From IMG/VR virus record IMGVR_UViG_3300010389_000008: DNA of 64,000 nucleotides, one strand, 5' to 3'. Below are positions 1,249-63,856 of this stretch, one piece after another. The notes beneath the pieces were generated by a model. That model did not search any database. It saw nothing but the letters and a program-made list of their open reading frames with translations, and was not told where the DNA came from. Both the position numbers and the translations under genes were made by a program. Origin of the DNA: a virus. How positions within the stretch are numbered: the first letter of the stretch is position 1; each line of letters opens with the position of its first letter.

Positions 1249-1264
1249 TATCTCAGACAGGACA
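1249..1264. promoter_or_regulatory. Putative operator (TGTCC-N6-GGACA family)
   Basis: TATCT-CAGACA-GGACA; reverse complement matches the 6308 site at 14/16. Confidence 0.55.
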
Positions 1265-1613
1265 GCTGCCCCCTATGTTGGTTTCAACCAAACGGAGACA
1301 GCCAACGACACAGCCGAGACCCCTACCAGGGACATACGGCACGAGCAACCCGCAAGCGGACCCCGATGGGCGCTTGACAGGTGCAAACGGTCCAGACCAG
1401 CCCTAGGCAAGTGCTGCCAGGTTTAGGTTCGCGAATGTAAGTTACGCCAATGGTGTGACCGATGAGTACCGGCGGATCTGGCGGGAACTGTTAAAGGTTG
1501 GGCTTTCAATAGATAACATTTAGGACTGCAACTTACGCGATAGGTGTGGTGTATCTCAACAACACTGAAGCGTATTTAATGTGGGCCAGGGTAACTAATC
1601 ATCCCTTCAGATT

Positions 1614-1723
1614 TAGCGCATGCTGTATCTCACAGAAAGGAGTGAATAGATAGATTTTCTCGGTGTATATCAGCAGATTAAATCTATCTTTTCACAATCA
1701 GGTTCAAATCCTGTCTTGCGCTA
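1614..1723 (+). ncRNA. Candidate tRNA-like structured RNA
   Basis: TAGCGCA/TGCGCTA closing stem, CTGT/ACAG hairpin, 16-bp central stem (1642-1657/1680-1695), T-arm CAGG-TTCAAAT-CCTG, then a terminator. Confidence 0.35.
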
Positions 1724-1724
1724 T

Positions 1725-1748
1725 TGCCACTTTTTAGTGGCACTTTTT
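1725..1748 (+). terminator. Intrinsic terminator-like hairpin
   Basis: TGCCACT-TTTT-AGTGGCA followed by CTTTTT. Confidence 0.6.
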
Positions 1749-1789
1749 CTCTCTCACCTTACAAGCTGTGCATTCAGCCTCTCACAATG
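1744..1789 (+). repeat. 46-bp leader repeat, copy 1
   Basis: 44/46 identical to 2363-2408; both end in the start codon. Confidence 0.9.
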
Positions 1790-1978
1790 ATTTCATCAAT
1801 TGCCTGCCTTGATGCTGCCTTTGTTGTGCAGCGATCTTGGGAATTCTGCGGCGAAGAGATGTGGGCCAATGATCGATTCTTTGACTCACTAGAACGTGCA
1901 GAACTCTACATCATTCAGATGAAACCTTTCTGGGATCGTCGTGAGCAAGCTCGCGTTATCTCAACCTCGGAGCTTTGA
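1787..1978 (+). CDS. Early hypothetical protein
   Basis: ATG ends the leader repeat; in frame with track ORF 1724..1978. Confidence 0.7.
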   Translation: MISSIACLDAAFVVQRSWEFCGEEMWANDRFFDSLERAELYIIQMKPFWDRREQARVISTSEL

Positions 1979-1980
1979 TC

Positions 1981-2360: not shown

Positions 2361-2362
2361 TC

Positions 2363-3134: not shown

Positions 3135-3150
3135 TGTCCGGTCTAGGACA
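3135..3150. promoter_or_regulatory. Putative operator, perfect palindrome, just downstream of a TATAGT -10-like hexamer (3124-3129)
   Basis: TGTCC-GGTCTA-GGACA. Confidence 0.65.
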
Positions 3151-3170: not shown

Positions 3171-3413
3171 ATGTACAACATTATCGACACCCGCAACTCC
3201 ACAATTGTTGCTCAAGCTCAGGACTACGACGAAGCAAAATCCATAGCTTCCTGTTATCGCAGACAACAGTTCATCACATCCGAAAACTGGAAGCTTGTTC
3301 AGATAAAGAAGAAGAAAGAAGCGCCTATTCGCACCTTCTTTATTGATGACGGTTGTTGTGACTCACTTCGTGATCGCCGTATGGAAGCTTTCGGTATGGG
3401 GTTCCATCGATGA
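3171..3413 (+). CDS. Early hypothetical protein
   Basis: ORF preceded by CTCTCTCACC leader. Confidence 0.7.
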   Translation: MYNIIDTRNSTIVAQAQDYDEAKSIASCYRRQQFITSENWKLVQIKKKKEAPIRTFFIDDGCCDSLRDRRMEAFGMGFHR

Positions 3414-5074: not shown

Positions 5075-5216
5075 TCTTGTCATCCGCGCTCGTGACCTTT
5101 CGGTTCTGGAAAATCGCGCTAAGTGGATATGCCTTCATCCGCAAGGTTTTCACTACATAACAAACGATCCTGACCTAAAGCGCATCGTCACAGTCGTTCG
5201 TCCATCCTGTCTCTGA
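5061..5216 (+). CDS. Small hypothetical protein
   Basis: Own translation MNLHDLVIRARDLS... (51 aa) filling the gap. Confidence 0.55.
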   Translation: MNLHDLVIRARDLSVLENRAKWICLHPQGFHYITNDPDLKRIVTVVRPSCL

Positions 5217-5468: not shown

Positions 5469-5484
5469 TGGCCTGGGCTGGATG
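5469..5484. promoter_or_regulatory. Degenerate operator candidate
   Basis: TGGCC-TGGGCT-GGATG, intergenic. Confidence 0.35.
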
Positions 5485-5514: not shown

Positions 5515-5787
5515 ATGACCTCGCTCGTCACCACAAACAAGTTCAGTGCCGACAAGATTGTCTGGCCTGCACAAACTCTCATCTCTAATTACGTTCTCAA
5601 GCAGTCCATCATCGAGTTCCTGGACAACAACCCTGAGGGTGTCCGCAACTGCGATGTAGGCAAAGCGATTGGATATAACGACTCCCGTCAGTGGTTCAGC
5701 TTCGGACTTCTGGAGTCACTGGTTAAGGAAGAGAAGGTCGAGAAACGCTCGATCAACGGCAAGACCCTCTACTTCTCTGTGGGCTGA
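5515..5787 (+). CDS. Putative winged-helix DNA-binding protein
   Basis: IIEFLDNNPEGVRNCDVGKAIG...LLESLVKEEKVEK pattern; start after leader motif. Confidence 0.6.
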   Translation: MTSLVTTNKFSADKIVWPAQTLISNYVLKQSIIEFLDNNPEGVRNCDVGKAIGYNDSRQWFSFGLLESLVKEEKVEKRSINGKTLYFSVG

Positions 5788-6164: not shown

Positions 6165-6256
6165 CCAATAAAAAACCTCGGATCTCACCCCGAGGTCGTA
6201 TCTCTCTCACCTACCAACCGCGTCGTAGCGGACGGTCGGTGAAACCACATTGTAAC

Positions 6257-6279
6257 GGCGGCCTACAGAGCCGCCTTTT
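6257..6279 (+). terminator. Intrinsic terminator
   Basis: GGCGGC-CTACAGA-GCCGCC-TTTT. Confidence 0.7.
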
Positions 6280-6323
6280 CATCCTTGACCGGATAGCAGC
6301 CTGGCTCTATCCTGTCTGAGACA
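6280..6323 (+). promoter_or_regulatory. Sigma70-like promoter overlapped by two operators
   Basis: -35 TTGACC (6285-6290), 17-bp spacer, -10 TATCCT (6308-6313); operators CATCC-TTGACC-GGATA (6280-6295) and TATCC-TGTCTG-AGACA (6308-6323). Confidence 0.65.
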
Positions 6324-6371: not shown

Positions 6372-7457
6372 ATGCCCGCACAAGCAAAACACGCCAATTC
6401 CGTCTCGAACCAGTACGCCCGAGAGCAGGAGGCCATGGTCTATGGCAAGTACAAGGAGAACGGCTATCAGGTCAATCCCTTGGTTTCGCAGGCAGGCGGC
6501 ACACTCATCAATGGTCGTGTTTCCGCTGCTGAAGCTTTCCGCATTGCGAACGCAGACTTCAAGGTCTCAAAGACCCTTGTTCAATACCACACCCCGGCCA
6601 GCTGTCTTGACGAGGTCATGCGGGTATCCGAGGAGCACTGCGCCCTCGTTCGCGAGGACACGGGTGACTGTCTCGGGATCATGGGGAACAACTACACCCC
6701 TGTGCAGAACGACAAGCTGATCCTGTTGTTCGAGTACCTGCGCGAGAACGTCGAGATCGACAACATCCTGACCATCCGCAACGGTCGCAAGGTGTTCGTC
6801 TCCGCTCGATGCGACATCGAGGGCGAAGTCACCTCAGGTGACAAGGTTCGCCGGTACCTCCACGCCTTCAACAGCTTCGACGGTTCCAGCTCATTCGGTG
6901 TCTTCTTCTCTGACATCCGTCTGCAGTGTGCAAACCAGATCAGCTACCTCTGCAGCAAAGGTGCCGGTCGTGCCAAGAAGGATGGTGCTGCGCTGGTGAT
7001 GCGCCATACCCGCTGTGTTGAGCAGTTTGCAGAGAGCCTGCCCCAGCTAATCAACGTCGAGCAGCAGAAGTTCGAGACGGACCTGAACAAGCTGCGCCCT
7101 CTGACGACCCTGAAGCTGACCTCAACAGCTGCACGTCACGTTCTAGAGCACACCTATTCCGATGATCTCGCTCGTCCTATTACGGACAAGATCAGCAAAG
7201 CAAAGCGTCCGCGTCTGCTGTCTGATCTTCCCCACGTCGATGTTATCCGCTCGCATTACAGCGGTGAAACAGGCTTTGGCGTCGAGACCGGTACTGCTTG
7301 GGGACTCTTCCAAGCCATCACTCAATACGAGACCCACAACGCCGGACGCCTCAAGGACAACACCGAGCGAGCCCGTGCTCGCCTCGAATCCCTTTGGGGT
7401 GGACAAGGTGCAAAGCGCATTGACAAAGCCCGTGAAGCACTCCTCGCTCTCGTCTAA
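6372..7457 (+). CDS. DUF932 / TIGR03299-like phage-plasmid protein
   Basis: REDTGDCLGIMGNNYTPVQN, NSFDGSSS, IRLQCANQ, GTAWGLFQAITQY. Confidence 0.85.
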   Translation: MPAQAKHANSVSNQYAREQEAMVYGKYKENGYQVNPLVSQAGGTLINGRVSAAEAFRIANADFKVSKTLVQYHTPASCLDEVMRVSEEHCALVREDTGDCLGIMGNNYTPVQNDKLILLFEYLRENVEIDNILTIRNGRKVFVSARCDIEGEVTSGDKVRRYLHAFNSFDGSSSFGVFFSDIRLQCANQISYLCSKGAGRAKKDGAALVMRHTRCVEQFAESLPQLINVEQQKFETDLNKLRPLTTLKLTSTAARHVLEHTYSDDLARPITDKISKAKRPRLLSDLPHVDVIRSHYSGETGFGVETGTAWGLFQAITQYETHNAGRLKDNTERARARLESLWGGQGAKRIDKAREALLALV

Positions 7458-8576: not shown

Positions 8577-8608
8577 ACCGGAATGGGGTTCACCTGTTCC
8601 GGTTTTTT
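8577..8608 (+). terminator. Terminator closing the early region
   Basis: ACCGGAA...TTCCGGT followed by a T run. Confidence 0.7.
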
Positions 8609-8660
8609 CGTGTCTGTGATGGTCTATCTCTGTGTAAGACTAGATAAATGATTTGGTCTT

Positions 8661-8804
8661 ATGAAAGCGATTGAATCGACCTTTAATCGTCTTCTTCGGC
8701 ACTTCGGCTTTGTCTTAATTCGAGTCCCAAGGCAGGCAGAACGGCCCCTTAAGTGCTCGCCTTTCAAGCGCGTTGAGGTGTACGACAACGACTGGTATGA
8801 CTGA
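8661..8804 (+). CDS. Small hypothetical protein
   Basis: Own translation MKAIESTFNRLLRHFG... (47 aa). Confidence 0.45.
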   Translation: MKAIESTFNRLLRHFGFVLIRVPRQAERPLKCSPFKRVEVYDNDWYD

Positions 8805-9072: not shown

Positions 9073-9477
9073 ATGGAGTACGTCACCGATTGCGCTGTTC
9101 CCCTGTCGCTAATCCCGACTGAGTACAGGCACCCCCTGGCTCGACAGTTCGAGGAGATTAGTGATGATGGAGACCTTGTCCGTAGTTATGACGAATGGGG
9201 CCTTGCCTCTGTTCTGACATATGCTTACACCCGTAAGGTCGCGACCAAGTCTGAATACGGGCAAATAGAAGAAGTAATCGGCATATGCCTAGAGGAATCT
9301 CGGCACTCCCGAACTGAGAACAAGGAATTGTTCCGGATGATTAAACGTGGGATTAAGTCCGGCAATGAAGAGGCGGTTCTGCCTTTTGCCAAAGTCCTCA
9401 CCTCTCGGATCGGTTGCGCTCTTGCTGAACAGCACGAGGGCATGAACCCTGAAGAGGATGACGATGAGTCAGATTGA
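9073..9477 (+). CDS. Hypothetical protein
   Basis: 134-aa ORF heading the packaging operon. Confidence 0.8.
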   Translation: MEYVTDCAVPLSLIPTEYRHPLARQFEEISDDGDLVRSYDEWGLASVLTYAYTRKVATKSEYGQIEEVIGICLEESRHSRTENKELFRMIKRGIKSGNEEAVLPFAKVLTSRIGCALAEQHEGMNPEEDDDESD

Positions 9478-9676
9478 ATCCAGCGTCAATGATCAACTGC
9501 GTTTCGCAAACCTTGTTCGCGGTCTAGACAAACTCGATCACGAAGCCCTGCTTAAAATAACTATCGAACTAGCACGTTTGGCTTTTGTGACCCAGCCCGC
9601 AGCGATGCGATGGGCTGCCATGGAAGCGGCCAAGAACCTAGGGAATAGTTATGGATCGGCCCAAGGAATTAAGTGA
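9458..9676 (+). CDS. Hypothetical protein
   Basis: Overlapping operon ORF. Confidence 0.7.
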   Translation: MTMSQIESSVNDQLRFANLVRGLDKLDHEALLKITIELARLAFVTQPAAMRWAAMEAAKNLGNSYGSAQGIK

Positions 9677-10079
9677 GCGTCAGGTACTAGCAGCGCAGGC
9701 TCTTGCAGCTGGTTTCACTTGGCGGGACGCAGCTAAACGGGCTAAGTGCTCGACCGAGGGGATTAGGGCTTGGAAACAGCTCGAAGAGTTCAATAACGCG
9801 ATCTGGGATTATCAGCAGGAGATCTTTCACCGCTCCTTTGGGGTGACTTCCGAGGCTCTACCTGAAGCAATCCAAAAACTACGTGAGATTATCGATTCTC
9901 AAGACCCAGAGGTGGGTGTGAACGTTAAAGTTCAAGCAATCAAGATTTTGATCGACTCTGCTCACAAACAATACGAAGCCAGAACGATCGAGCGTCGCCT
10001 AGAGCAGCTGGAAGCTAATGCCCAACGCCAAGCTCTTAACCCGGTTGGAGAGGTTAGAGAAATTACAGAAGCAGCGTGA
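9651..10079 (+). CDS. terS: Terminase small subunit
   Basis: N-terminal HTH (LSERQVLAAQALAAG...AAKRAKCS); directly upstream of terL. Confidence 0.7.
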   Translation: MDRPKELSERQVLAAQALAAGFTWRDAAKRAKCSTEGIRAWKQLEEFNNAIWDYQQEIFHRSFGVTSEALPEAIQKLREIIDSQDPEVGVNVKVQAIKILIDSAHKQYEARTIERRLEQLEANAQRQALNPVGEVREITEAA

Positions 10080-17376: not shown

Positions 17377-17817
17377 TTGACCTGTATCAGCACACCAGCC
17401 CTTCATAGGGGCGCAAAAGGTGAGCACCTGTTTGAGGGACATTTTCTCGAGCAGGGAATCTTTATTGCTGCTCCCAAGCACGATCTGCATCGCGTCGATT
17501 ACGTCGTGGAGTGGAATGACAAGCTTGTGCGCGTCAACGTGAAGACTCTGCACTGGGTTAAATCCCAGAACTGTTATCACGCAGAGACCAGGACCAGCTG
17601 TCCTGGAGGCAACCGCACATACACATCTGACGAGATCGATTACTTCGGCATCGTCAGTTTGGAGTATGGGCACATTTGGATGGTTCCCCTGTCTGCTACC
17701 AGGGGTACCTCTATCTCTTGGCATCCGCCGCAGAAAAGGCACAGGAAACGTGTGGACTCCTTTAATTGGGATCCTTACCTCATAAAAAGAGGTACGACAT
17801 CAGTTCTTGATACTTAA
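17377..17817 (+). CDS. Free-standing PD-(D/E)XK endonuclease (I-Ssp6803I-like family)
   Basis: GAKGE...P...RVDYVV...RVNVKT...Y...IDYF. Confidence 0.75.
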   Translation: MTCISTPALHRGAKGEHLFEGHFLEQGIFIAAPKHDLHRVDYVVEWNDKLVRVNVKTLHWVKSQNCYHAETRTSCPGGNRTYTSDEIDYFGIVSLEYGHIWMVPLSATRGTSISWHPPQKRHRKRVDSFNWDPYLIKRGTTSVLDT

Positions 17818-52980: not shown

Positions 52981-53032
52981 CCCCGGTCCCCGTTGCATGA
53001 CCGGAGTCGACCTGCAGCACAAAGGCCCAACG
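52981..53032 (-). ncRNA. Glutamine-II riboswitch (Downstream-peptide motif)
   Basis: CGUUG...GCAG-GUCGACUCCGGUCAUG-CAACG-GGGACCGGGG; P1 CGUUG/CAACG; pseudoknot CUCCGGUC/GACCGGGG; P2 unusually short. Confidence 0.82.
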
Positions 53033-53039
53033 TGCTCTT

Positions 53040-53059: not shown

Positions 53060-53167
53060 TGTTTGCCCCTATACAAAACGGGTGCATGCTCGTTTACATC
53101 GCGTATAGCCAGACGTATAGTCATTTCACTGAGTCCAGTCCAGGGCTGTGTTTTTAACTCTTGCGCT

Positions 53168-53214
53168 CCTGCATGGCATGCAGGGGGTCAGGAGTTCGAG
53201 TCTCCTTGGCTCCA
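53168..53214 (+). other. attP core: 3' half of tRNA-Ala(GGC)
   Basis: Anticodon arm CCTGC-ATGGCAT-GCAGG, T-arm AGGAG-TTCGAGT-CTCCT, acceptor 3' strand TGGCTCC-A with U70; no D-arm or 5' acceptor strand; next to the integrase. Confidence 0.88.
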
Positions 53215-53230: not shown

Positions 53231-53269
53231 AGGGCCTGGGATCTCAGCGATTTCAGGCCCTAATTTTTT
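53231..53269 (+). terminator. Terminator downstream of the att core
   Basis: AGGGCCTG...CAGGCCCT then AATTTTTT. Confidence 0.7.
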
Positions 53270-53277
53270 GGGTTCCT

Positions 53278-53293
53278 CGTCCTGTTTGGGACA
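53278..53293. promoter_or_regulatory. Putative operator (or integrase arm site)
   Basis: CGTCC-TGTTTG-GGACA. Confidence 0.55.
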
Positions 53294-53364: not shown

Positions 53365-53380
53365 TGTCCTAGTTTGGACG
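53365..53380. promoter_or_regulatory. Putative operator upstream of int
   Basis: TGTCC-TAGTTT-GGACG, 21 nt before the int ATG. Confidence 0.55.
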
Positions 53381-53401: not shown

Positions 53402-54505
53402 ATGCGTAGAGCACCAAGCACGTCTCAGCACCAGGATCGGAACGCCGACCTAAAGAGGATGGGCATTCCTTTCAGGCTGCGAAAGACTTCTCAGACCCCT
53501 TACTACCAGATACGCGCTCTTCATCTCTTTCAGGATGGAAGAGAGATCAAAAGTACTGGTATACGAGTTGATCAGGACGGAGCAGCGGACAAGGTTTTTC
53601 AGCTGTGCCTAGCTCTAGACAGGGATCCGAGCGTTTTTCTGGACTTTGATCAGGAGTTGCGGGCCACCACTCCAGAGCTGTCTGGCTGGTCTGCTTTGGG
53701 GATGAAGCTCGAAGCCCACATCAAGGCTCGGGGATCAACGGTCTATGAGGACTACAGGCGGCACATCAAGTCCCTCAGCGGACTCAGGGGGCCAGTGACA
53801 ATGGCCAGGCTTCAGAAGTGGGTGGAGGAACCTCGCCCGGACCAGAGAGACCGGGAGCGCCGCATCGTCACGGCAGAGCGTCTGGTGGAAATGGGAATCA
53901 ACCTCGATCCGAACTGGCTGACCAAAATCAAGTCATTGACGACCTATGAGCAATCGAAGGTGGTTGATCCACGGACCCTGCCTACAGATGATCAGCTTGT
54001 TGAATTCATTGATCGGATGCCTAACCGGGCCTGGCAGGTCGGCCTGGGTTACATGGCCACCTATGGGCTTCGTCCCCATGAGATTTTCCGGATCGAGGCC
54101 CGCCCTGACCGGGAAGGTTGGATTGAGATCTCGAGAGACTCGAAAACGGGGTGGAGGGCTGTCATGCCTGCTCACCCGGAGTGGATCGATCGTTGGAATC
54201 TCTGGGCCGGTGGGGTACCCGATCACAACTCCGACATGAGCCTCAAGGATCTGGGCCGGAAGGTCACTCAGCACGTCAAACGCTATAGGCATCTAGCGAC
54301 GTGGCCTGACCCAAAGGCTTACTCCCTAAGACACGCTTACGCAGCCAGGCTGCATACCCATGAGGACTACGAGGAGCTAGAGACGCGGGATACGGCAAAG
54401 CTTATGGGGCACTCCGAGAAGGAGCACAAGAACGTCTACTTGCGCTGGGTCGACAAGGATCAACTCAAGCGTTCCATGAAACGTCGCTTACGCTCCCGCC
54501 AATGA
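53402..54505 (+). CDS. int: Tyrosine integrase
   Basis: YGLRPHE (R), YSLRHAYA (HxxR), LMGHS...H...Y. Confidence 0.92.
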   Translation: MRRAPSTSQHQDRNADLKRMGIPFRLRKTSQTPYYQIRALHLFQDGREIKSTGIRVDQDGAADKVFQLCLALDRDPSVFLDFDQELRATTPELSGWSALGMKLEAHIKARGSTVYEDYRRHIKSLSGLRGPVTMARLQKWVEEPRPDQRDRERRIVTAERLVEMGINLDPNWLTKIKSLTTYEQSKVVDPRTLPTDDQLVEFIDRMPNRAWQVGLGYMATYGLRPHEIFRIEARPDREGWIEISRDSKTGWRAVMPAHPEWIDRWNLWAGGVPDHNSDMSLKDLGRKVTQHVKRYRHLATWPDPKAYSLRHAYAARLHTHEDYEELETRDTAKLMGHSEKEHKNVYLRWVDKDQLKRSMKRRLRSRQ

Positions 54506-54530: not shown

Positions 54531-54668
54531 TCAAACAAAGCGGGGACCGGGATCACGACGACTACGGACAACCTCGCAAGCTCTCCTGTAGAACTCGCAG
54601 TTCGTTTTCCCGGACGCCTCTAAAGCCTGCTTGACCTTGACCCAATTCTGAAAGGTGTGATCGTCCAT
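54531..54668 (-). CDS. Small cyanophage-type protein (45 aa)
   Basis: Own translation MDDHTFQNWVKVKQALEASGKTNCEFYRRA... Confidence 0.7.
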   Translation of the reverse strand: MDDHTFQNWVKVKQALEASGKTNCEFYRRACEVVRSRRDPGPRFV

Positions 54669-54670
54669 CT

Positions 54671-54856
54671 CTAAGTGATGTAAGGCCATGCGATCTCAAC
54701 GTCGCCCTTCCAGACATCGGGATCGATGGGGTTAACACTTACATAGTCCCTAAATTCTCGCTTTAGTGTTTCAAGGGGCAGATTGAGTTGATCTGCCAGA
54801 ACAGCAACGTTGCTCTGCCCCCTGTAGAGAATTTGGAGTCCTTCCCTAAGTTCCAC
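54671..54856 (-). CDS. Hypothetical protein
   Basis: Operon-packed 61-aa ORF. Confidence 0.65.
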   Translation of the reverse strand: MELREGLQILYRGQSNVAVLADQLNLPLETLKREFRDYVSVNPIDPDVWKGDVEIAWPYIT

Positions 54857-54858
54857 GT

Positions 54859-57207
54859 TTAAGCGTCGTGGATAGGCGCGAACATCGCCTCTTTCGAGAA
54901 AGGCTGGGCCTCACGTTCCGGGTCGACGCCTGCAATAAGGCATTTATCGGAATCGCAGGGTGCTGGACCTGCCTCGATCAGCTCACCAGTGTCGTGCTGT
55001 TTAAGTGCGTCAAAGAAGTCTGGATTCCTTCGGCGCTGTTTTACCTCCGCCTCAAGTTGCAAGTACTCCACTTGAGAAATGGGTTCAAAGGGGAGACGAG
55101 GAAACGTCGCGTTGGCATCAAAGCGTGCCAGAAGCGCAGCTGAAATGTAGCCCTTGTCCTGATCAATGGCCTCATAGATCAGGTTCGACAGCTCTTCGAT
55201 CTCATTCTCCCGATACTCAATCGTTGCCGATGTGTTGTGAGCGGTGTAGTGAGTCTGAACTTGCATGTAGAAGTCGAATTGAGCAGCAGCGGAGATAGCA
55301 CTGATGTCGACTTCGTCACAGCCGGGAATAGATGCCCAGCTAACAGCGGTTGGGATTTCAACCAGCCACTCGGTGCAACGAGGGTCAAAGGGGTTGTCAA
55401 GCAGTCGGCCTTCTTCATCCTTGTCGGATTGGGAAGGAACGACGTTGTAGCCGTAATCGATGCAGGCCAGTGCCACCGGATCGTCCTTCCGGAAGGTGAT
55501 ACGACGGATGAATCGCTGTGACTTCGGAGGGTGCCAGCCTGAAGAGGCTCCCGTCAGCAGACTCTTGGTACCTGCGGGTTGGACAGTGGTGGTGCGGTTG
55601 GGAACGCGGAGGCCGTGACGCTTGCAGTACTCCTCAACGGTGCTTTCAACAATGAAACGCCACCTCTTCAAGTACGCCGCCTCGGTTGCCTTAAAGGCTT
55701 TACCCTCTGCTGTGTTTGGTCGTCCCGCAATAAACCACTTCAACCACTCAGCTCCGAAGGCATGGACGAAGAAGTCAAAGAGGCCGGTAAAGCTGACACC
55801 CACGATGGGGTCCATTTCACGACTTTCGCGGTAGCGATCGATCTCGAATCGATGGTGCAGTAGAGCAGCAGCTGTCAGGGCTCCAGCCTTAAAAGCTTTC
55901 TGCTGCCCTTCAGTATCAGTCGGATCGATTCGGTTGAGGTGAATCTCAGACAGGTTGCAGTGGAAGTCAGTCCCGAGGATCTCTCCGCAAGGATTAAGGC
56001 CATAACGATTTAGACGGTGACGACGTTCCTGGTCGTCCATTGGGAGACCTTCTGGGTCCAGCATGCAGAGGTAAGCAGCTGCAAGATCCCTGCCTTCATT
56101 GCAGTAGATATCGATGAACTCTTTGCGCTTTTGCTCAGTGTTCAGGATGTCAACATTAGATCGAGCAATAGCTTCTGGTGCGAATTGAATAGCACCTTCA
56201 CCGCTGTAGAACTGCTTGGTGACGGCCTCCTTGACCTCGTCTTTGCTGGGCTTGGAGTGGTAGACACGAGTGTGATTTGCCATCCGCAGCGCATCCCGCT
56301 TGGGGTCAATGCGCCAAGCTCCATCTGGATCCTGTTGCCACAGGTTGTCTTTCGCACAGGCTGCTGCTGCGTCATCCGAACCGAACTGACGCATGCCCGC
56401 ACTACGCCTGATGTTGCCCGCGACCACAACGGTTGCAGCCTCATCAATCAAGAGGCAACACTCAACGGAAGTCAACCGGCGACCAAGCGCACCATTGAGG
56501 ATGTTGAGCATCTTGGTGAATAGTTCTTCCAACTTGATTGGGTTGGAAGTACCACCAAAGCCCTTTAGCTTCTCGCCCGCTGGACGAACACAGGACAGAT
56601 CGAGATTGATGTGAACAGGGCGCATCCAATCGAACTCCAGTGACGTTGAAGCTTCGATCACCGCCATGTAGGCATCCACCCACCCATGACGACTATCACC
56701 GACCTTGAGGTTGATGGTGTTACCCCGGTAATCAACAAACGTATGCTCTTGTCTGTTGTTCGGCGCTGCGGAACCGACGCCGATCACTTGCTCAATAACT
56801 AAAGAGTTACGGATAGATGGCAGGTTTTTGATCATCCGCTCTTCGATGATCGCACCAGTACCCGACCCCATCATGGCTAGGTCCATCATCAGACCAAAAG
56901 CATCCCAATCCACCAACTCAGTGGATGTGCAGTTGTAAGCACCAGAAAAGTTCTTGGGATTTTTGATCCATTCTGTGCCACCGACCCAAAGCCAGCGACC
57001 AGAGGGAAGCATTTTCTTCGCGTCCACCATTTCACCCACCAGGGTGGTTTCTTCATCGGTGAACTGGCCCAGCTCACTCAGGCCATCAATTACACGTTTG
57101 CGGACTTCCGCGAATGACTCGCGGGTTCCATCATCCTTTCGTCGGCTATATGTCCGATAAAACACAGGATTGGCAGCCGGGGCGGAGGCCAAAAAATCTG
57201 AATTCAT
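54859..57207 (-). CDS. nrdJ: Class II (B12-dependent) ribonucleotide reductase
   Basis: VFYRTYSR, PSGRWLWVGG, AYNC, VAGNIRRSA, NPCGEI, CNLSE, TTVQPAGT. Confidence 0.95.
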   Translation of the reverse strand: MNSDFLASAPAANPVFYRTYSRRKDDGTRESFAEVRKRVIDGLSELGQFTDEETTLVGEMVDAKKMLPSGRWLWVGGTEWIKNPKNFSGAYNCTSTELVDWDAFGLMMDLAMMGSGTGAIIEERMIKNLPSIRNSLVIEQVIGVGSAAPNNRQEHTFVDYRGNTINLKVGDSRHGWVDAYMAVIEASTSLEFDWMRPVHINLDLSCVRPAGEKLKGFGGTSNPIKLEELFTKMLNILNGALGRRLTSVECCLLIDEAATVVVAGNIRRSAGMRQFGSDDAAAACAKDNLWQQDPDGAWRIDPKRDALRMANHTRVYHSKPSKDEVKEAVTKQFYSGEGAIQFAPEAIARSNVDILNTEQKRKEFIDIYCNEGRDLAAAYLCMLDPEGLPMDDQERRHRLNRYGLNPCGEILGTDFHCNLSEIHLNRIDPTDTEGQQKAFKAGALTAAALLHHRFEIDRYRESREMDPIVGVSFTGLFDFFVHAFGAEWLKWFIAGRPNTAEGKAFKATEAAYLKRWRFIVESTVEEYCKRHGLRVPNRTTTVQPAGTKSLLTGASSGWHPPKSQRFIRRITFRKDDPVALACIDYGYNVVPSQSDKDEEGRLLDNPFDPRCTEWLVEIPTAVSWASIPGCDEVDISAISAAAQFDFYMQVQTHYTAHNTSATIEYRENEIEELSNLIYEAIDQDKGYISAALLARFDANATFPRLPFEPISQVEYLQLEAEVKQRRRNPDFFDALKQHDTGELIEAGPAPCDSDKCLIAGVDPEREAQPFSKEAMFAPIHDA

Positions 57208-57311
57208 AAGTGGTCTGAGGGCGATCAACGATCAACTGCAGCCTTCTCAGGGTAACCAGAAAAGGACAGGTCACATCGGTTGTCCTGGTTACGATATGCG
57301 TAAAAAGTCCC

Positions 57312-57479
57312 ATGATCGAGCAGCTTTTTGATGCCCTCGGCACCGTGTACTACAAAGTCACTTTTCCAGACGGAAACATCGCTTATACAAGCTGCTGCTG
57401 GATGGCAGACATCTTTCTAAAGCGTTGGGAAGACGAGGTATTTTCTATTAACTACCGTGGTGCTAACTTGAGCAATTGA
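57312..57479 (+). CDS. Small hypothetical protein (55 aa)
   Basis: Own translation MIEQLFDALGTVYYKVTFPDG... Confidence 0.6.
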   Translation: MIEQLFDALGTVYYKVTFPDGNIAYTSCCWMADIFLKRWEDEVFSINYRGANLSN

Positions 57480-57609
57480 TCTTGAAGCTGTGTGATCTGA
57501 AGATGCAGCATGGCTCTCGCACCCTCGCTTAAATGAGGCTGTTGAGCCAGTTTGATCAAGAACAAAATCTGCTCAGATAAAGCCTTGTGCTCGTTGCTTT
57601 CCATAGACC

Positions 57610-57780
57610 ATGACACAAAAAACTTGGGTTCTCCCTATTGATGATGAGGGCGTGATCAGTTTTCCGGCAGATCTGATTGAAGCTGTGGAGTGGAAAGAAG
57701 GAACGGTTTTATCTTGGGCTGTTAGGGAGGATGGCTCTATTACTCTCAAGCCAGCTGCTGATCCTCACTCAACCGAGTGA
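57610..57780 (+). CDS. AbrB/SpoVT/MazE-like small DNA-binding protein (56 aa)
   Basis: WVLPIDDEGVISFPADLIEAVEWKEGTVLSW...DGSITLK. Confidence 0.7.
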   Translation: MTQKTWVLPIDDEGVISFPADLIEAVEWKEGTVLSWAVREDGSITLKPAADPHSTE

Positions 57781-57919
57781 TGTAAGACTTGGCTGCGAAG
57801 AGAGTCTTGAAATAGTGGCGATCTCCGTTGATAATACAAAAGTAAGCAGGAGCATCTCCAATGGGGAAAGCGATTTCATAGATCCGCAAACCTAGGTGAT
57901 CGTAGTAGATCCTCCCCAT
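57746..57919 (-). CDS. Hypothetical protein
   Basis: MGRIYYDHLG...; overlaps both neighbours. Confidence 0.45.
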   Translation of the reverse strand: MGRIYYDHLGLRIYEIAFPIGDAPAYFCIINGDRHYFKTLFAAKSYITRLSEDQQLA

Positions 57920-58409
57920 CGCGAGCCATTGATACCCGACTATCTCCAAAATAACGCCCACAATAGGGTTTCTGTGCGTGTTCGGTGTACTCAAAGAATG
58001 TGAGTTGACCAACACGCAGCCCTGGATAGATAGAAACATGACCGAACTGAAGGATGTTTTTCAGTTCAAGGGTCAGGCGGCCTTCGTACCCACAATCCAC
58101 AAGCCCTGCTAAAGAATGATTGAGCCCCTCTCTGGCGCGGCTGCTTACGAGGTGCAAGTGTGCCTCAACATTAGTAGGCATGCGGAAGTATTCAACTGTC
58201 TCTGCTAACACAAAGCAGCCGGGAGGCATTAAGCAGGGTTTGTCAGGTGTGTAACCTGAAAGATCGAGTGGTCTAAATCCGCCCTCCTCGGTCTCGACCA
58301 AGGCATTGTCACCTAGGTGTACGTCATAGCTACAGGGTTGAACGCACTTTTGGTGAAAAGGACGGATCATCCCTTCGAGCCCTAATTCAGTGATGCGGCG
58401 GTCAATCAA
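57876..58409 (-). CDS. dcd: dCTP deaminase
   Basis: VQPCSYDV, FVLAETVE, SSRAREG, AGLVDCGYEGRLTLE; probable TTG start at 58409 (track starts at 58502). Confidence 0.9.
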   Translation of the reverse strand: MIDRRITELGLEGMIRPFHQKCVQPCSYDVHLGDNALVETEEGGFRPLDLSGYTPDKPCLMPPGCFVLAETVEYFRMPTNVEAHLHLVSSRAREGLNHSLAGLVDCGYEGRLTLELKNILQFGHVSIYPGLRVGQLTFFEYTEHAQKPYCGRYFGDSRVSMARDGEDLLRSPRFADL

Positions 58410-58578
58410 AGCGTCCGTAGCGATGTTGTTTTTTGCCTCTCCACTGCCTCCTCGATTTTTTCTTGGAGTTGTACCAGTCGAGAAAGTACTGAGCGTCGTC
58501 AACTAAACGATGCAGTAAGCCCTGAGGGAGCTGCTCAACTATTTCGTCGAGCCTCTTCTTGTAATCCTCTCGGGACAA
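58402..58578 (-). CDS. Small hypothetical protein (58 aa, TTG start)
   Basis: Own translation MSREDYKKRLDEIVEQLPQGLLHRLVDDAQYFLDW... Confidence 0.5.
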   Translation of the reverse strand: MSREDYKKRLDEIVEQLPQGLLHRLVDDAQYFLDWYNSKKKSRRQWRGKKQHRYGRFD

Positions 58579-58608
58579 AGCACCGTTCTTGTCCGTTCAA
58601 AGATACCG

Positions 58609-60438
58609 TCATTTAGCGGACCAATCGCTTCCATAGCCTGGCTCGGCCACGATTGGCACATTGGTTAGACAGACTTCAAACGCCGCAGATTCCATGCACT
58701 CTTTGAGCACTATTTGAGCTTCATCTTTGTCCTCCTCTGGAACCTCCATCACACATTCGTCATGGACGTTGGCCACGAGACGCCATTCAGGCCTATCGGA
58801 TAGATAGTTCTCCCAAAGCAGTGTGAGAGCGGCTTTCATGCAGTCCCCACCTGTACCTTGAACTTGAGTGTTGAGCCGGGTCGTGAATTTGTCAGACCCC
58901 ATTGGTCCTTGAGTCAAGATCCGGCGGCGTCCCATCAATGTATAGACCGGGCCTTTGGAGTTGCCCTGTGTCTTTTGCCATCCGATCAACTGCGGATACG
59001 AAGACTTCCATTGGGAAAGCTTTTCTTCTGCTTCCTCCAGCGTGAAGACCACTCCGTACTGGGTAGCTGCTTGTTGTCTGATGGACTTGGCACCACTTCC
59101 ATATAGCGCACCGAAATTGATGATCTTCGCAGCGGTCCTGTCAGCCTTTTGCACACTGTCCTCAGGTACGCCGACCATTAGTGAGGCTGTGCGCTTGTGG
59201 AGGTCTGCCCCTTCGCGGTAGGCCTGAGTCATCCGCTCTTCACCGCTGCACTCAGCAGCAATTCGCAGCTCAAGCTGAGAGTAGTCAGCAATAACCAATA
59301 CATGCCCCGGTGACGCGATGAAGCCCTTGCGATACTCCGCGTCACGTTTAACTTGCTGCAGATTTGGGCCAGCACACGAAGCTCTACCGGTGTCGGTACC
59401 CAGCTGCCGGTAACCGGCGCGAATTCTGTTGTCTTCGTAGTCTTTTGCATGTCCAATAAGCTTCTCCACTTGTGAGCAAGCGGTCTTCAGTTCTTTGAAG
59501 ACCAAATAGTCACGAATCAGACTGTGGTCAGGCGCAAGAAAAGCCAGAGCGTTCTTATCTAAACTGTTTTCGATTTGTATGCCAGCGGCGCGGAAAGCAG
59601 GCTGTAACTGGGTTGTAGATCCTGGGTTGAACCCCTTGATCTTGTTCTTGCCTTTGCCATAAAACTCAGGGTGGATCATTACAGCATTCGTTATGGGGTG
59701 TCTGTACTGTTCGAGAACACCCACTTCTTCAAGCTGCCTTACGACATGGATGCAGGCAGCATCACGCTCTTTGCTTTTTTCTTCTAATAGACGCTCGTAG
59801 TGCGGGATGTCGAGCAAGAAACCGTTGTACTGCATCGAAGCGAATGCAGGCAGCGCACGGCATTCCAGTCGGAATATGTGTGTCAGTTCTTCTTGCCTTA
59901 GTTTCTTACGCAGCACTTCCCAAAGCGGGAAGCAGATTGATACGTCACGAGCTGCATACTCAAGCTGTTCTCGGCTGAAGGGTCCGCTATGTCCGATGAA
60001 CGACTTCTGTAGAGCCTCTTTCTCTTCCATCTCTAAACCGAGATGTCGTTCAACTAGCACCCCCAAGCTGTTTTTTGTCTTCAACCCGAGGTTCAACAGC
60101 TTCCCCGCGATCATTGTGTCTAAGAGAATGCCCCGTAGCGGTAGCCCGTTCTGCTCCAGGAAACCCCACTCAAACGTAAGGTTCTGCCCAAGCTTGACCG
60201 TGTGGACGCTTGCCAGAAGTGGAGCAAGCTCCTTGACATCTGACCCAATCGCTTCCACATCAAAGACGAAGACCTGTTCAGCAGTTCCAAGCTGGATCAG
60301 CAAGATCTTGTCGTGTTGAGGCGAGAGCCCGGTCGTCTCAATATCAAGTCCGAGGATGCGTTGTGAGCTAAGCAGCTGTACTGCGCTCCTCACTTCGGAT
60401 CCACGCTCGACATATACCAATGATGGACTCAAGCTCAT
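58609..60438 (-). CDS. polA: Family A DNA polymerase with 3'-5' exonuclease
   Basis: GLDIETTG, ADYSQLELR, AKIINFGALYG, NVHDE; no 5'-3' exonuclease domain. Confidence 0.96.
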   Translation of the reverse strand: MSLSPSLVYVERGSEVRSAVQLLSSQRILGLDIETTGLSPQHDKILLIQLGTAEQVFVFDVEAIGSDVKELAPLLASVHTVKLGQNLTFEWGFLEQNGLPLRGILLDTMIAGKLLNLGLKTKNSLGVLVERHLGLEMEEKEALQKSFIGHSGPFSREQLEYAARDVSICFPLWEVLRKKLRQEELTHIFRLECRALPAFASMQYNGFLLDIPHYERLLEEKSKERDAACIHVVRQLEEVGVLEQYRHPITNAVMIHPEFYGKGKNKIKGFNPGSTTQLQPAFRAAGIQIENSLDKNALAFLAPDHSLIRDYLVFKELKTACSQVEKLIGHAKDYEDNRIRAGYRQLGTDTGRASCAGPNLQQVKRDAEYRKGFIASPGHVLVIADYSQLELRIAAECSGEERMTQAYREGADLHKRTASLMVGVPEDSVQKADRTAAKIINFGALYGSGAKSIRQQAATQYGVVFTLEEAEEKLSQWKSSYPQLIGWQKTQGNSKGPVYTLMGRRRILTQGPMGSDKFTTRLNTQVQGTGGDCMKAALTLLWENYLSDRPEWRLVANVHDECVMEVPEEDKDEAQIVLKECMESAAFEVCLTNVPIVAEPGYGSDWSAK

Positions 60439-60601
60439 CGAGGTTGTCAGGGGTGAGAGAGATACACACTTCCTTTCCGTTAGTCAGGTCGACCACATTG
60501 AGGGAAAGGTCGTTGCTGCTAGAGGCGGTGATTCCAAAAGTGTTTTTGGGGTTTGAGGTGCTTTCACCAAAAAAGCTTCCGGGCTCTGTCCAGGTCCGCA
60601 T
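60368..60601 (-). CDS. Hypothetical protein
   Basis: 77-aa ORF overlapping the polA start. Confidence 0.45.
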   Translation of the reverse strand: MRTWTEPGSFFGESTSNPKNTFGITASSSNDLSLNVVDLTNGKEVCISLTPDNLDELESIIGICRAWIRSEERSTAA

Positions 60602-60800
60602 CTAATCAGGGTCAACGTGATGAGTGTATCCAAGTCAGGACGAGCGTCAAGGCCCGCAGTGTTTTGGACGGACAGAAGGTACGTTTCGGACCGCCCGCTC
60701 AAATGTTCCTCGCGATACACAATTCATCTCTTCCTCTGCACCGGTGCTTTTATGCAGGACCACGCATACACGCAGCAGAAAAAGCATATTGATGTTTGCT

Positions 60801-61175
60801 TTAACTATCAGCCTGCGACTCAGACTCGCGTTCAGCGTGCCACTCCGCTATGCGCTGAAGAGCTTCGGGCTTCAGAAGACGTTCTATATGCGGTTTTGGC
60901 TCCATCGTTCCCTCGTAAACCCCGGTTTTGCAGGCCACCTCGTGCTGGCAGCTGAAACAAGCAAAGGAGTAGCAGGGCTTTCCTAAACGCTTTTCGGTCT
61001 TGACTGATAGCTGTTCCTTGATGTGCTCTACGAAGGTGGTCCAGTTGGCGTGCCTTTGGAACTGCATATGAAACATTTCCTGCAGCACTTCGGACATCGT
61101 CTTCTCGTAGAAGGCGGAGTACTGCTTTAAGGCTTTGTGGGTGCTGTCATCTAGCTGAACTGAAATCCGTTTCAA
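60801..61175 (-). CDS. Ribbon-helix-helix protein with Cys-rich C-terminus
   Basis: MKRISVQLDDSTHKALKQYS...KTMSEVLQE; CYSFACFSCQHEVAC. Confidence 0.7.
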   Translation of the reverse strand: MKRISVQLDDSTHKALKQYSAFYEKTMSEVLQEMFHMQFQRHANWTTFVEHIKEQLSVKTEKRLGKPCYSFACFSCQHEVACKTGVYEGTMEPKPHIERLLKPEALQRIAEWHAERESESQADS

Positions 61176-61202
61176 GGGTTTTGTATCACCGTATACATAA
61201 GG

Positions 61203-63800
61203 CTACAGCAGCTCGTCCCAGCAAGGAGGTGCATCTGTCTCTGTCTTTTGCTGGACGTTTTCCCTATTCCCCTCGGAATTTGTCCCATTGGGAAGATCCG
61301 TTGGCACCACAGGGTTTTCCAATGGGACAGGCTGATTGTTGTCCCATTGGGAATGGATGCACCTATCTGTCCTCGTCCCGTCATGGACATCATGAGGCGA
61401 TTCAAATGGGACAAAAGGGGCTGTCCCATTGGCTGTCCCATTGGGTTGTCCCATTGGGAACCCCTCTCCATCACTGGGATCTGCTCCAATGGGACAAAAC
61501 TCGTCAAGACACTCTCCCCGCGCATGAGAACCTAGTTTTTTGTATAACTCGATACCATTTTTAGTGCAAGCGACAAACGACTTCTCTTTCTTCCCGTTGT
61601 CACGGCTCTGAGCCAGCGGTTCAAAGCTCTTGATCAGCTCTCTGGCCTCTAAACGCTGAAGAGATTTCCTGATTGCTGAGGTGGAAGCCTTAGCCCCGCC
61701 GTCAGCTCCCACCATGGTCTCGATTTCAGAGCGTTTAAGGGTTCGGTTCAGCTCCGTCGACTCTCTAATGACGTTGTGGACACGGTCGTAGACAGAGACT
61801 GATCCCCCCGGCCTGAAGCGTTGTACGGGCGTGAAGTCCTCCAGGTCCATGGTGAAGTCCTCATGGAGCAGGGTGATCAGCTCATCCCCCTCACGGCCTG
61901 AGCGGCTCTTACCGATGGTGATCTTGCGCCTACGGAACGTGTCATCCCCCCAGGCGTTTTCCTGCATCTCCTGATCTGTGGGCTTCGAGATCGACCACGT
62001 TTCCGAAACGGCATCACGGATCGATGAGTGGCCCCTAAAGCCGCCCTGCTTGTTGTTGTGATGGATCACTACAAACGTGCATTTCGGAAATGCAGTTCCG
62101 TTATTGGCTTCAAGCCAGTAGAGCGGGGCTGAGACGATCTGTTTGTTCCCGTCCACGGTCGGCTGGCTGGCGGCCAGCGAATCGATGATCACCAAAGCCG
62201 GTTCAAGTTGGCGGATCTTGGAGGCCAGGCGGTTGGTGTGACGCAGCCTGAAGTCGTGATAGACGTGAAACCAGGGCTCGTTGGCAATGCCTTGAGCATC
62301 TAGCTGTTCCTCCAAGGTCTCCAGCGACTGGTCAGCGTTACACCAGAGCACCGGCCCTTGCTTAACGGGCATGTCGGCTCCCCGGACCTTGAAAGGCAAA
62401 CCGCGCCCAATGTGCTTAGCCAGCACCTGACAGGCCAATGACTTTCCGCAGCCCCCATCCCCATGCAGGAGCACCGTGGAGGGGCGCTTCAGCACATCAG
62501 GGATCAACCAATCGGTACCAGTGATCAGGGCCTGACGAGCCTTGAAATCGAGGGTGTCACCCGACCGCTTGTAGTCCTCATCCTCCTGCAGGAGAAGACG
62601 GATTTGATCCGCGTCTTTACGGACCCCGTAATCCCCAGCAAGTTGAAGCAGCTCCAGATCCTGCTCTGCAGGGTTTGGGAACTCCTCGATGATCCTTCTG
62701 GCGACCTGAAGCAGAGATGGCCCCTCTACCGGGTCGTACTTCTTGACCTCCTGTGTTTTCTGAATCTCCCGGAAGTCATCGGGGTAGCGCTGACCCACCA
62801 GATCTGCGATTTCCTGGAGATATCCCTGCAGCGCAACTGGAGAAGGGTCTCCAGCGTTGATATCGCGCTCTCTAAGGGCATGCAGAAGCTTTAGAGCATC
62901 CCCGCCTACTTCTTCTTTATGGCAGTACCAGTTGAGATTTTCAGACCAGATGGTGAAGCTTTTCCCACTGTTGCTGTCGTGGAAGGGACAGCCTCCAACA
63001 AGCGTTCCTTTCTCTGTGTTCTCCAGCGTCAGGGGCTGAAACTCCCAGACTTCTGAGTTGTAGATCTGAGTAAAGCCTTCCTCGGATTTAAGGAGCTTCT
63101 CCAGCAGGCCGCCTTCCATAAAGAAGTGACGACGCATCTGCCTATAAGTGAAGTCGGTGCTGGCGTCCTGCCTTTCCAGATAGCTCTGTGGCAAGAACGG
63201 ATGTACCTCAGGGGCGTCACCGGCCTCGGACATCATGAAATCGATCAGCCAGCCAGGTGCCTGGGCTACGACTCCACCGTTGTAATCAATCCACTCGTAA
63301 GGCTTCTTGGTATCCGGATGCTTAGAGCCGGGGATCACGGAGTAGCAGCCGTTGTACCGGACGCAGACCTCTTCATCACTGCCCTTGAGTTCAGGAATGA
63401 ACTGGGCCTTCGTGAACTTGGTGAAGAGAGGCCTCACCCCATCAGGAACCCTGTAGAGCAGTTGCCGCCTTCCAGGCCTTCCACGCCAAGACATGGTTCC
63501 GGGCTTTGTGACCTCAGGCCACTTATCACTGAGAACCTCCTTGAAAAGCTCCTCAGCTCTAGGTCCATCAATATCGACTGCTACCAATCCGTTGCTGGCA
63601 TCTCCAGTCACAACGCCAAGGCCTGTCTGACGGTGGCGACGGCTATTGATCTTCCCGAGAGTCTTCTCTGTGTCTAGAGGGTCTGAAGATGTCCCCTGAC
63701 CAAAGGCGTCTTTGCCCCTCACCAGTACCCATTTCCAGTCCTTAGGCAGCAGGTTCCGACGTAGCTGCTCGTCGGCAGCCAGCTGGGGCGTGAGGTCCAT
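61203..63800 (-). CDS. Bifunctional primase-polymerase / Zn finger / RecA-type (AAA_25-like) helicase
   Basis: GVVTG...LVAVDIDG, SVIPGSKHP; CPFHD...WYCH; HGDGGCGKS, LVIIDSL, IHHNNK...RGHS. Confidence 0.92.
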   Translation of the reverse strand: MDLTPQLAADEQLRRNLLPKDWKWVLVRGKDAFGQGTSSDPLDTEKTLGKINSRRHRQTGLGVVTGDASNGLVAVDIDGPRAEELFKEVLSDKWPEVTKPGTMSWRGRPGRRQLLYRVPDGVRPLFTKFTKAQFIPELKGSDEEVCVRYNGCYSVIPGSKHPDTKKPYEWIDYNGGVVAQAPGWLIDFMMSEAGDAPEVHPFLPQSYLERQDASTDFTYRQMRRHFFMEGGLLEKLLKSEEGFTQIYNSEVWEFQPLTLENTEKGTLVGGCPFHDSNSGKSFTIWSENLNWYCHKEEVGGDALKLLHALRERDINAGDPSPVALQGYLQEIADLVGQRYPDDFREIQKTQEVKKYDPVEGPSLLQVARRIIEEFPNPAEQDLELLQLAGDYGVRKDADQIRLLLQEDEDYKRSGDTLDFKARQALITGTDWLIPDVLKRPSTVLLHGDGGCGKSLACQVLAKHIGRGLPFKVRGADMPVKQGPVLWCNADQSLETLEEQLDAQGIANEPWFHVYHDFRLRHTNRLASKIRQLEPALVIIDSLAASQPTVDGNKQIVSAPLYWLEANNGTAFPKCTFVVIHHNNKQGGFRGHSSIRDAVSETWSISKPTDQEMQENAWGDDTFRRRKITIGKSRSGREGDELITLLHEDFTMDLEDFTPVQRFRPGGSVSVYDRVHNVIRESTELNRTLKRSEIETMVGADGGAKASTSAIRKSLQRLEARELIKSFEPLAQSRDNGKKEKSFVACTKNGIELYKKLGSHARGECLDEFCPIGADPSDGEGFPMGQPNGTANGTAPFVPFESPHDVHDGTRTDRCIHSQWDNNQPVPLENPVVPTDLPNGTNSEGNRENVQQKTETDAPPCWDELL
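61281..61506. repeat. Iteron-like array TGTCCCATTGG x8, putative replication origin
   Basis: Copies at 61281+, 61319-, 61340+, 61403- (1 mismatch), 61422+, 61434+, 61447+, 61496-. Confidence 0.8.
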
Positions 63801-63812
63801 GTCGTCCTCTAT

Positions 63813-63856
63813 TGTCCTTACAGAGACACGGTAACGAGCCTGTCCAGTACGGGATG
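63813..63856. promoter_or_regulatory. Tandem operators in a divergent intergenic region
   Basis: TGTCC-TTACAG-AGACA (63813-63828) and TGTCC-AGTACG-GGATG (63841-63856), 28 bp apart. Confidence 0.6.

Follow-up and report, generated by a model that had tools for sequence, protein, structure and literature searches.

The DNA analyzed here is a stretch of 64,000 nucleotides (hereafter the window) from the IMG/VR virus record IMGVR_UViG_3300010389_000008, in which a 16-bp palindrome, YRTCC-N6-GGAYR, recurs near early, integrase and replication genes. The window covers most of a ~68-70-kb genome of the siphovirus type. Its plus strand encodes RusA, HNH, small early genes, a DUF932 gene, the terminase and the structural genes. 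The minus strand carries a replication block with a Prim-Pol/AAA_25 primase-helicase, a family-A DNA polymerase (polA), a dCTP deaminase and a class II ribonucleotide reductase (RNR). The primase-helicase gene (61203..63800, minus strand) heads this leftward replication operon. Divergently from it starts a candidate repressor gene, of which the window contains the first 26 nt (63975..64000, plus strand). The remainder of this gene, which encodes a protein of 242 amino acids (aa), lies beyond the window on contig L136 (full gene at 9342-10070), which is 100% identical to window positions 54634-64000 and extends 2,930 bp beyond the right edge. Neither a megablast search of 50,697 phage records with the replication module nor a tblastn search with the primase-helicase gave a match, and there is therefore no cultured close relative to work with. 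Nine IMG/VR loci encode primase-helicases that are 58-78% identical to that of the window. Five records among these nine loci, two of them complete with terminal repeats, were scanned for the motif.

The window also carries an integration module. A putative tyrosine integrase gene of 367 aa (int; 53402..54505, plus strand) was recognized by eye from motifs in its translation (box I GLRPHE, box II LRHAYAARL and GHS...Y). The match to Pfam Phage_integrase is only marginal (E=0.17), and the protein shares 46-50% identity with its counterparts in relatives. Upstream of int lies a tRNA-Ala(GGC)-like core of the phage attachment site attP (53142..53214, plus strand), which reaches 22.6 bits with the Rfam tRNA model, below threshold. 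The 44-nt 3' part of this core is identical to the 3' part of tRNA-Ala(GGC) in 100 Synechococcus/Prochlorococcus/Cyanobium genome loci, and relatives have a tRNA fragment in the corresponding position upstream of int. A recombinase-like gene with an adjoining 44-nt identity to tRNA-Ala makes a temperate picocyanobacterial phage a fair reading, and the source phage is plausibly temperate and plausibly infects ocean picocyanobacteria.

Eight exact copies of the palindrome are present in the window compared to 0.73 expected from dinucleotide shuffles. None of 100 shuffles contained eight or more copies, and Markov simulation gave an expectation of 0.95. When all 256 4-mers were scanned as inverted dyads with spacers of 0-12 across the window, GTCC-N6-GGAC was the most over-represented dyad (8 vs 0.67 expected). 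The YR/YR flanks are required for this signal, as the core TCC-N6-GGA by itself showed no enrichment. Five exact copies (3135, 6280, 53278, 53365 and 63841) had been listed in the original prediction, and all five lie at the coordinates claimed. To these we added 7173 (inside the DUF932 open reading frame (ORF)), 60627 (between polA and a ribbon-helix-helix (RHH) gene) and 61374 (in the 3' end of the primase-helicase ORF). Taken together, copies with one mismatch are no more frequent in the window than chance would predict (24 vs 18.1 ± 4.4 expected). The five that had been listed were all found in place, and those at 6308 and 63813 have orthologous copies in relatives, whereas those at 5203 and 5469 have none and were rejected as operators; the sequence at 5469 is the loop of a CTGGC/GCCAG hairpin.

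The exact sites are concentrated outside genes. Using mechanical ORF maps, which over-extend gene starts, five to six of the eight exact window sites are non-coding compared to a non-coding share of the sequence of 10-17%, and across five genomes 12 of 30 exact sites are non-coding compared to 3.1 expected (p about 2e-5). A comparison of intergenic with coding density, which had been proposed as a check, thus returned a non-coding excess. The five relative records contain 3-8 exact copies each compared to 0-1 for a reversed-pattern control.

We then considered the sites individually. Sites with RTCC/GGAY half-sites are referred to as T-type and sites with RACC/GGTY half-sites as A-type, the latter being the form that many orthologous sites take in the relatives G002 and L125. 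In the early region, an operator with the exact sequence TGTCC-N6-GGACA (3135..3150) is located 21 nt 5' of the ATG at 3171, and the orthologous position is A-type in both G002 (39981) and L125 (16572). The promoter of the DUF932 gene carries two sites. O1 (6280..6295, exact) follows a terminator (6257-6275), and its 6-bp spacer is the -35 hexamer TTGACC. O2 (6308..6323, one mismatch) lies 28 bp from O1, and its left half is the -10 hexamer TATCCT. A promoter scan independently recovered TTGACC-17-TATCCT at 6285-6313, in agreement with the promoter that had been proposed there. The site orthologous to O1 is A-type in G002 (36165) and L125 (20351). Orthologues of O2 read TATCC-N6-GRACA in all five genomes, and the 28-bp pair is retained in L125 (20351/20379). 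The exact match within the DUF932 ORF (7173..7188) is of a different kind: it falls within conserved codons for R-P-I-T-D. G003 and G005 have the same sequence there base for base, G001 and G002 nearly so, and in G002, whose other sites switched, the match is still T-type. As judged from these alignments, it is probably a coincidence of coding constraint and not an operator.

Two exact sites lie between attP and int. The distal one (53278..53293) is found just 3' of a terminator (53231-53261) and has orthologues in G001 (7933) and, as an A-type site, in G002 (57508). The proximal one (53365..53380) precedes the int ATG by 22 nt, and its spacer TAGTTT resembles a -10 hexamer (TAnnnT). This int-proximal arrangement, CATCC-TAnTTT-GGACR, is conserved in G001, G003, G004 and G005 and is A-type in G002 (57454). 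Across the relatives, this site precedes the int ATG by 21-29 nt and has the spacer TAnTTT; another site comes after the terminator further upstream.

In the replication block, an exact operator (60627..60642) lies between the -35 TTGACG and the -10 TACACT of a minus-strand promoter (60650-60623) upstream of a 77-aa ORF and polA. This promoter is conserved in relatives, and its G002 counterpart has an A-type site (50251). Further along, between the polA stop and a 58-aa gene, lies a one-mismatch site (58590..58605) that reads TATCT-TTGAAC-GGACA on the gene strand and has a -35-like spacer. As its orthologues in G003 (11001) and L004 (7226) are exact, this site should by sequence criteria be added to the list of operators. 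A pair of one-mismatch sites 28 bp apart (57253..57296; 57253/57281), between the start of the RNR gene and a plus-strand 55-aa ORF, is uncertain; it recurs in G001 only, and G002 has an A-type site (53626) in that region.

At the primase-helicase promoter, O1 (63841..63856, exact) covers about -35 to -20 and O2 (63813..63828, one mismatch) about -8 to +8. The two are 28 bp apart, so that both of the 28-bp spacings originally noted are correct. The alignment suggests a -10 hexamer TACCGT (63828..63833, minus strand) within a TACNNT that is invariant in seven phages. In the relatives, this promoter forms a conserved island just upstream of the gene in otherwise unalignable intergenic DNA, with the order CATCC-N6-GGACA, invariant TACNNT and TGACC-N6-GGAYR, the last of which is the conserved form of O2. 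The left half of O1 reads CAACC in L125. A second tandem pair, with its sites 27 bp apart, follows the stop of the divergent gene, which encodes 242-249 aa in the relatives; in L136, the tandem sites 27 bp apart are found directly after the gene that starts at 63975.

One exact operator (61374..61389) occupies the center of an array of eight iterons TGTCCCATTGG in both orientations (61281..61496), located within the low-complexity 3' end of the primase-helicase ORF. Three of the iterons stand in tandem with a period of 12-13 bp, and the array is the probable replication origin. Its architecture is conserved in seven phages, and the central palindrome is exact in L005 and L006, has one mismatch in L003 and is A-type in G002 (49388). 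We rejected the idea that iterons and palindrome are the same motif, because TGTCC is shared by the two in the window only: the iterons of relatives are phage-specific (TGTCCCACTGG, TGTCGCATTCG, TGTCTGATTTG) and read TGTCG... or TGTCT..., and the palindrome is unchanged. As the iteron sequence varies while the palindrome is constant, two different proteins must read them.

Together, the sites are kept at orthologous promoter-proximal positions although the relatives' proteins are only 58-78% identical. The checks that had been suggested for related phages thus turned up motif copies at orthologous places, and the claim that the palindrome marks early, integrase and replication promoters holds for the DUF932, int, polA and primase-helicase promoters. 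The palindrome overlaps core -35/-10 hexamers, and its register relative to them varies: the spacer can be the -35 or the -10 hexamer, a half-site can be the -10 hexamer, or the site can lie between the hexamers or over the start site. Such a variable register argues for repressor-type and not activator-type sites. It had also been considered that the sites near attP might be arm sites of integrase or excisionase, and the palindromes might alternatively form RNA hairpins in 5' leaders. Two sites do lie between attP and int, and several sites are found 13-26 nt before start codons. However, six of the eight exact sites are 4-50 kb away from attP and are thus not confined to its arms; since the same motif sits at promoters all over the genome, including promoters 10-50 kb from attP, we rejected the arm-site reading. 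The hairpin reading was rejected because the two halves vary independently: the common form CATCC...GGACA places A-C and C-A mismatches in the stem, and there is no pairing covariation. We regard both explanations as exceedingly improbable.

Which factor might read these sites? The lineage of G002 and L125 is informative here, as about ten orthologous sites have switched in it from RTCC/GGAY to RACC/GGTY. G002 carries nine YRACC-N6-GGTYR sites at orthologous operator positions, seven of them in one 20-kb piece in which 0.17 would be expected. The switched positions comprise O1 of the DUF932 promoter, the 80-aa gene, both sites behind the regulator gene, the center of the origin, the polA promoter, the RNR region and both int sites. 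L125 has four such sites in 20.8 kb. In the other four genomes, YRACC-N6-GGTYR occurs 0-2 times, and the two copies in the window, both in tail genes, are at chance level. A concerted change at about ten sites argues that one factor reads them and that this factor evolves with the phage.

This observation also bears on the idea that a host transcription factor binds the sites and that the phage promoters are plugged into a host regulon. TGT-N10-ACA geometry is reminiscent of sites of the CRP/NtcA family, and the palindrome shares this geometry and is constant over phages whose proteins are as little as 58% identical, as might be expected for a host factor. However, five Synechococcus genomes (2.2-3.3 Mb) contain 14-48 palindrome matches each compared to 24-51 for the reversed control, a density of about a tenth of that in the phage. 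We rejected the host-regulon reading because of this lack of enrichment. Moreover, the half-sites switched in G002 despite an attP core with the same tRNA-Ala sequence as in the window. A host factor therefore appears very improbable. The data support the view that the sites form one regulon, which by sequence comparison would be bound by a phage-encoded factor.

The best candidate for this factor is the product of the gene starting at 63975 (P0039 in L136; orthologue P0003 in the relative L001), whose orthologues have 242-249 aa. The gene is divergent from that of the primase-helicase, and in every relative it is flanked by the O1/O2 pair on one side and the second tandem pair on the other. 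We could not locate its own promoter within 63857-63974. Sequence comparison links the protein to the half-site switch: predicted helix 3 reads HSSQIAGLR in 8/8 T-type loci and HSST... in 5/5 A-type loci. Among the Thr-type orthologues are P0031 and the protein encoded in L002 (5100-5828, minus strand). In the left half-sites just behind the regulator gene, base 3 is T in 16/16 cases at the loci with Gln and A in 9/10 cases at the loci with Thr, where lineages other than G002 and L125 (L127, L129-L132) contribute contigs of only 2-6 kb with few and partly degenerate sites. Between G001 and G002 the regulator is 51% identical compared to about 72% for other proteins, which makes it the long protein most divergent in G002. 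Its residues 27-100 are nearly invariant.

Structure prediction gave a compatible picture. AlphaFold2 modeled the regulator with a predicted local distance difference test (pLDDT) score of 87.5. The top 50 of a VIA-wide structural search were almost all XRE/Cro-C1 helix-turn-helix (HTH) proteins, matching residues 19-149 and residues 157-249 at Z scores of only 5-6. Among the fold matches were P22 c2, the N-terminal domain of lambda cI and TP901-1 CI, and Atlas feature matches fell into HTH_3 clusters with scores of 0.84-0.88. Whole-chain Foldseek against PDB returned nothing, a profile search against PDB sequences nothing relevant and a search of P0003 against Pfam and PHROG no match; none of 52 clusters homologous to the regulator has a precomputed Pfam domain. 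Peptidase_S24 was likewise absent by Pfam, and in the model the C-terminal half is a helical, HTH-like domain. As a symmetric homodimer, the regulator reached an interaction prediction score from aligned errors (ipSAE) of 0.71 compared to 0.00 for the best control. Of 30 proteins solved as pairs, 20 attain that mark, as does 1 of the 23 solved as single chains. Three runs agreed in at least 94% of contacts with a partner pLDDT of at least 85, and the interface does not involve helix 65-72. The regulator thus models as two XRE-like HTH domains in a symmetric homodimer.

A homologue of the regulator (P0052) is also found at the end of L134, a 42.5-kb ENA contig (k141_1518498), with a T-type site upstream. 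The remainder of this contig carries cellular genes (isoamylase, Zip, inositol phosphatase and a transposase-like HTH protein), and the homologue could represent a domesticated copy or what is left of a prophage.

The ORF from 63975 was one of four candidate regulators proposed originally, and the change of its predicted recognition helix together with the operators favors it. The other three fare less well. The RHH gene at 60801-61175 was rejected because it is present in some relatives only. The AbrB/MazE-like protein (57610-57780) passes Pfam but is acidic (11 Asp/Glu, 4 Lys/Arg) and therefore unlikely to bind DNA. The third, a winged-helix protein of 90 aa (5515..5787, plus strand), has an unchanged recognition helix in G002.

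Several observations weigh against our assignment. The Thr-type regulators form one clade; the co-variation with the half-sites is therefore a single evolutionary event, and other genes of this clade could carry the change. A gene for a second RHH protein lies directly behind the tandem pair next to the regulator gene and is about equally divergent in G002. G002 also retains four T-type matches, two of them in coding DNA, one within the DUF932 ORF and one on the -10 hexamer of the DUF932 promoter. The HTH assignment itself draws on modest scores, with neither a Pfam nor a PDB sequence match.

Could the operators then be bound by the winged-helix protein or by the RHH protein behind the regulator gene? 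The fold of the former is clear and its recognition helix is as invariant across relatives as the motif, and the latter has the position and the divergence just described. However, the recognition helix of the winged-helix protein is invariant in all five genomes, switched G002 included, and the DNA-reading strand of the RHH protein (RRRTVWLTD) is unchanged in G002, where about ten operators changed. We therefore consider binding by either of them improbable. The RHH ORF (~93 aa; RRRTVWLTD...LSPSE...LERLLRQ) is found just past the right end of the window in L136 (10135-10420) and on the minus strand in L001 (4756-5037). It is conserved and was not called by gene callers; the next ORF, in another frame, overlaps with its variable tail.

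On balance, the evidence leans toward the palindrome being the operator of a phage-encoded dimeric HTH regulator, most likely the 242-aa protein, that acts like an immunity repressor. Of the immunity-repressor regulon put forward in the original prediction, the single regulon and the phage-encoded factor are backed by conservation, promoter overlap, the lack of host enrichment and the joint switch; from these we infer binding, repression and a role in lysogeny. We propose that the two-HTH protein binds each 16-mer as a dimer, probably cooperatively at operator pairs 27-28 bp apart. Bound dimers would occlude the -35 region, the -10 region or the start site, and this would block the promoters of the primase-helicase, of polA, of the 58-aa/dCTP-deaminase unit, of the DUF932 gene, of the early 80-aa gene and of int. 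A further operator copy would be occupied at the center of the iteron origin. In this way, early transcription, replication and integrase expression could all be shut down by a single protein, which is how an immunity repressor works in a lysogen, and the location of its gene between two tandem operator pairs would resemble an immunity region. Tentatively, we extend this model: the two-HTH family may be the missing immunity repressor of temperate picocyanobacterial siphoviruses, the Gln/Thr residue may set two heteroimmunity groups via half-site base 3 (T or A), and the origin may be gated directly through the operator at the center of the iterons, in which case one protein would lock transcription, replication and integration alike.

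The same operators and the same protein might instead serve a lytic role, either as a Cro-like shut-off of early and replication genes or as a temporal switch. The regulator gene heads a rightward early operon in the same direction as the early and structural genes and lacks a LexA/S24-like autocleavage domain, two properties that make a Cro-like lytic role possible and speak against an immunity repressor. In addition, an alignment of the regulator searched against 185,579 representative prokaryote genomes revealed no integrated prophage copy. On the other hand, int and the origin are among the loci that carry sites, the phage has an int-attP module, and two specificity classes of a heteroimmune-like kind are expected under superinfection immunity. 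We consider such a lytic role unlikely, though clearly worth weighing.

The proposed arrangement can be compared to well-studied phage repressors. The lambdoid CI and Cro repressors (lambda, 434, P22 c2) are dimeric XRE-type HTH proteins that bind palindromic OR/OL operators arranged in tandem. Like these, the window phage would use a predicted dimeric XRE-type HTH protein, 14-17-bp palindromes over -35/-10 regions in tandem 23-28 bp apart, a regulator gene flanked by operator clusters and specificity classes set by recognition-helix residues. In contrast to the lambdoid proteins, its regulator has two HTH-like domains, no S24/LexA-type cleavage domain and no Pfam family, its gene points in the same direction as the early genes, and its operators, rather than forming two clusters, occupy about a dozen positions across the genome. 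The repressor c of the Streptomyces phage phiC31 acts at many palindromic operator copies by individual early promoters. As with these conserved inverted repeats, many copies of one palindromic operator are found across the early region here, whereas the protein is unrelated and the sites include one copy in the replication origin and others at int. Stoperators of the L5/Bxb1 gp71 type are asymmetric 13-mers that are orientation-dependent and lie inside transcription units. The window phage shares with L5 and Bxb1 repressor sites across the genome beyond the main early promoter (tens in L5/Bxb1), but its sites are symmetric, promoter-proximal and placed on promoter hexamers.

Among isolated phages, only P-SS2 encodes a homologue of the regulator, a hypothetical protein (GQ334450 92228-92869) that is very distant (22.8% identity over 85% of the length, E=2e-4). 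P-SS2 is, like the window phage, a picocyanobacterial siphovirus that bears int and attP, and it was described as a phage that 'lacks an identifiable repressor' (PMC2784084). Our literature search found no description of an operator or repressor for cyanosiphoviruses, nor of this motif. Whether and how phages of marine Synechococcus and Prochlorococcus establish lysogeny is a long-standing question. An abundant group of uncultured phages (52 protein clusters, many metagenomes) now gains a 16-bp operator with about a dozen operator positions and a named candidate protein with two natural specificity variants. With these, the lysogeny switch can be tested in vitro and with reporter assays even though no phage is in culture. 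A further use of the parts might be as orthogonal repressor-operator pairs for cyanobacterial genetics.

We made further observations on integration. The sole phage-like match among the tRNA-Ala loci (L124) was rejected as evidence of integration, as it is a short contig binned into a 'proteobacterium' metagenome-assembled genome. In several Synechococcus genomes, the 44-nt tRNA-Ala 3' part occurs twice on one contig at a distance of 8-32 kb (L043/L056, L077/L104, L076/L105, L083/L121 and L111/L112), which is a signature of islands integrated at tRNA-Ala. In G003 (17600-17800) and G005 (8600-8800), a different tRNA lies beside int (anticodon loop CUUCUAA; a full gene in G005), showing that this phage group has seen a change of integration target without loss of the operator upstream of int. 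Near attP, a Glutamine-II riboswitch (window 52981-53035, minus strand; Rfam RF01704, 39.9 bits compared to a gathering score of 33) is located upstream of a small minus-strand ORF.

Elsewhere in the window, two small plus-strand genes (57312-57780) lie antisense within the minus-strand replication block and are kept in all relatives. They comprise the 55-aa ORF and the acidic AbrB/MazE-like protein (56 aa; Pfam E=8e-7), and a sigma-70-like promoter is found at 57170-57197. The dyad TGTA-N9-TACA ranked second among the over-represented inverted dyads of the window (6 vs 0.6 expected). At 900-1720, 820 bp are without a convincing ORF; the first part of this region is AT-rich, a tRNA T-arm-like sequence (GGTTCAAATCC) and a terminator form its end, and ARAGORN reports no tRNA in it. 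A pyrimidine motif, CTCTCTCACC, recurs 0-30 nt upstream of early-gene start codons in the window (3152, 6202, 6345, 5499 and others) and in relatives, where it stands in place of a Shine-Dalgarno sequence. The same motif opens a conserved stretch of ~45 nt between the terminator and the DUF932 promoter (window 6190-6250), in which it is followed by an imperfect hairpin with CCGCGTCGTAGCGGACGG. This stretch is kept in all five genomes (at orthologous places in G001, G002, G003 and G005) and may represent a small RNA or a leader element.

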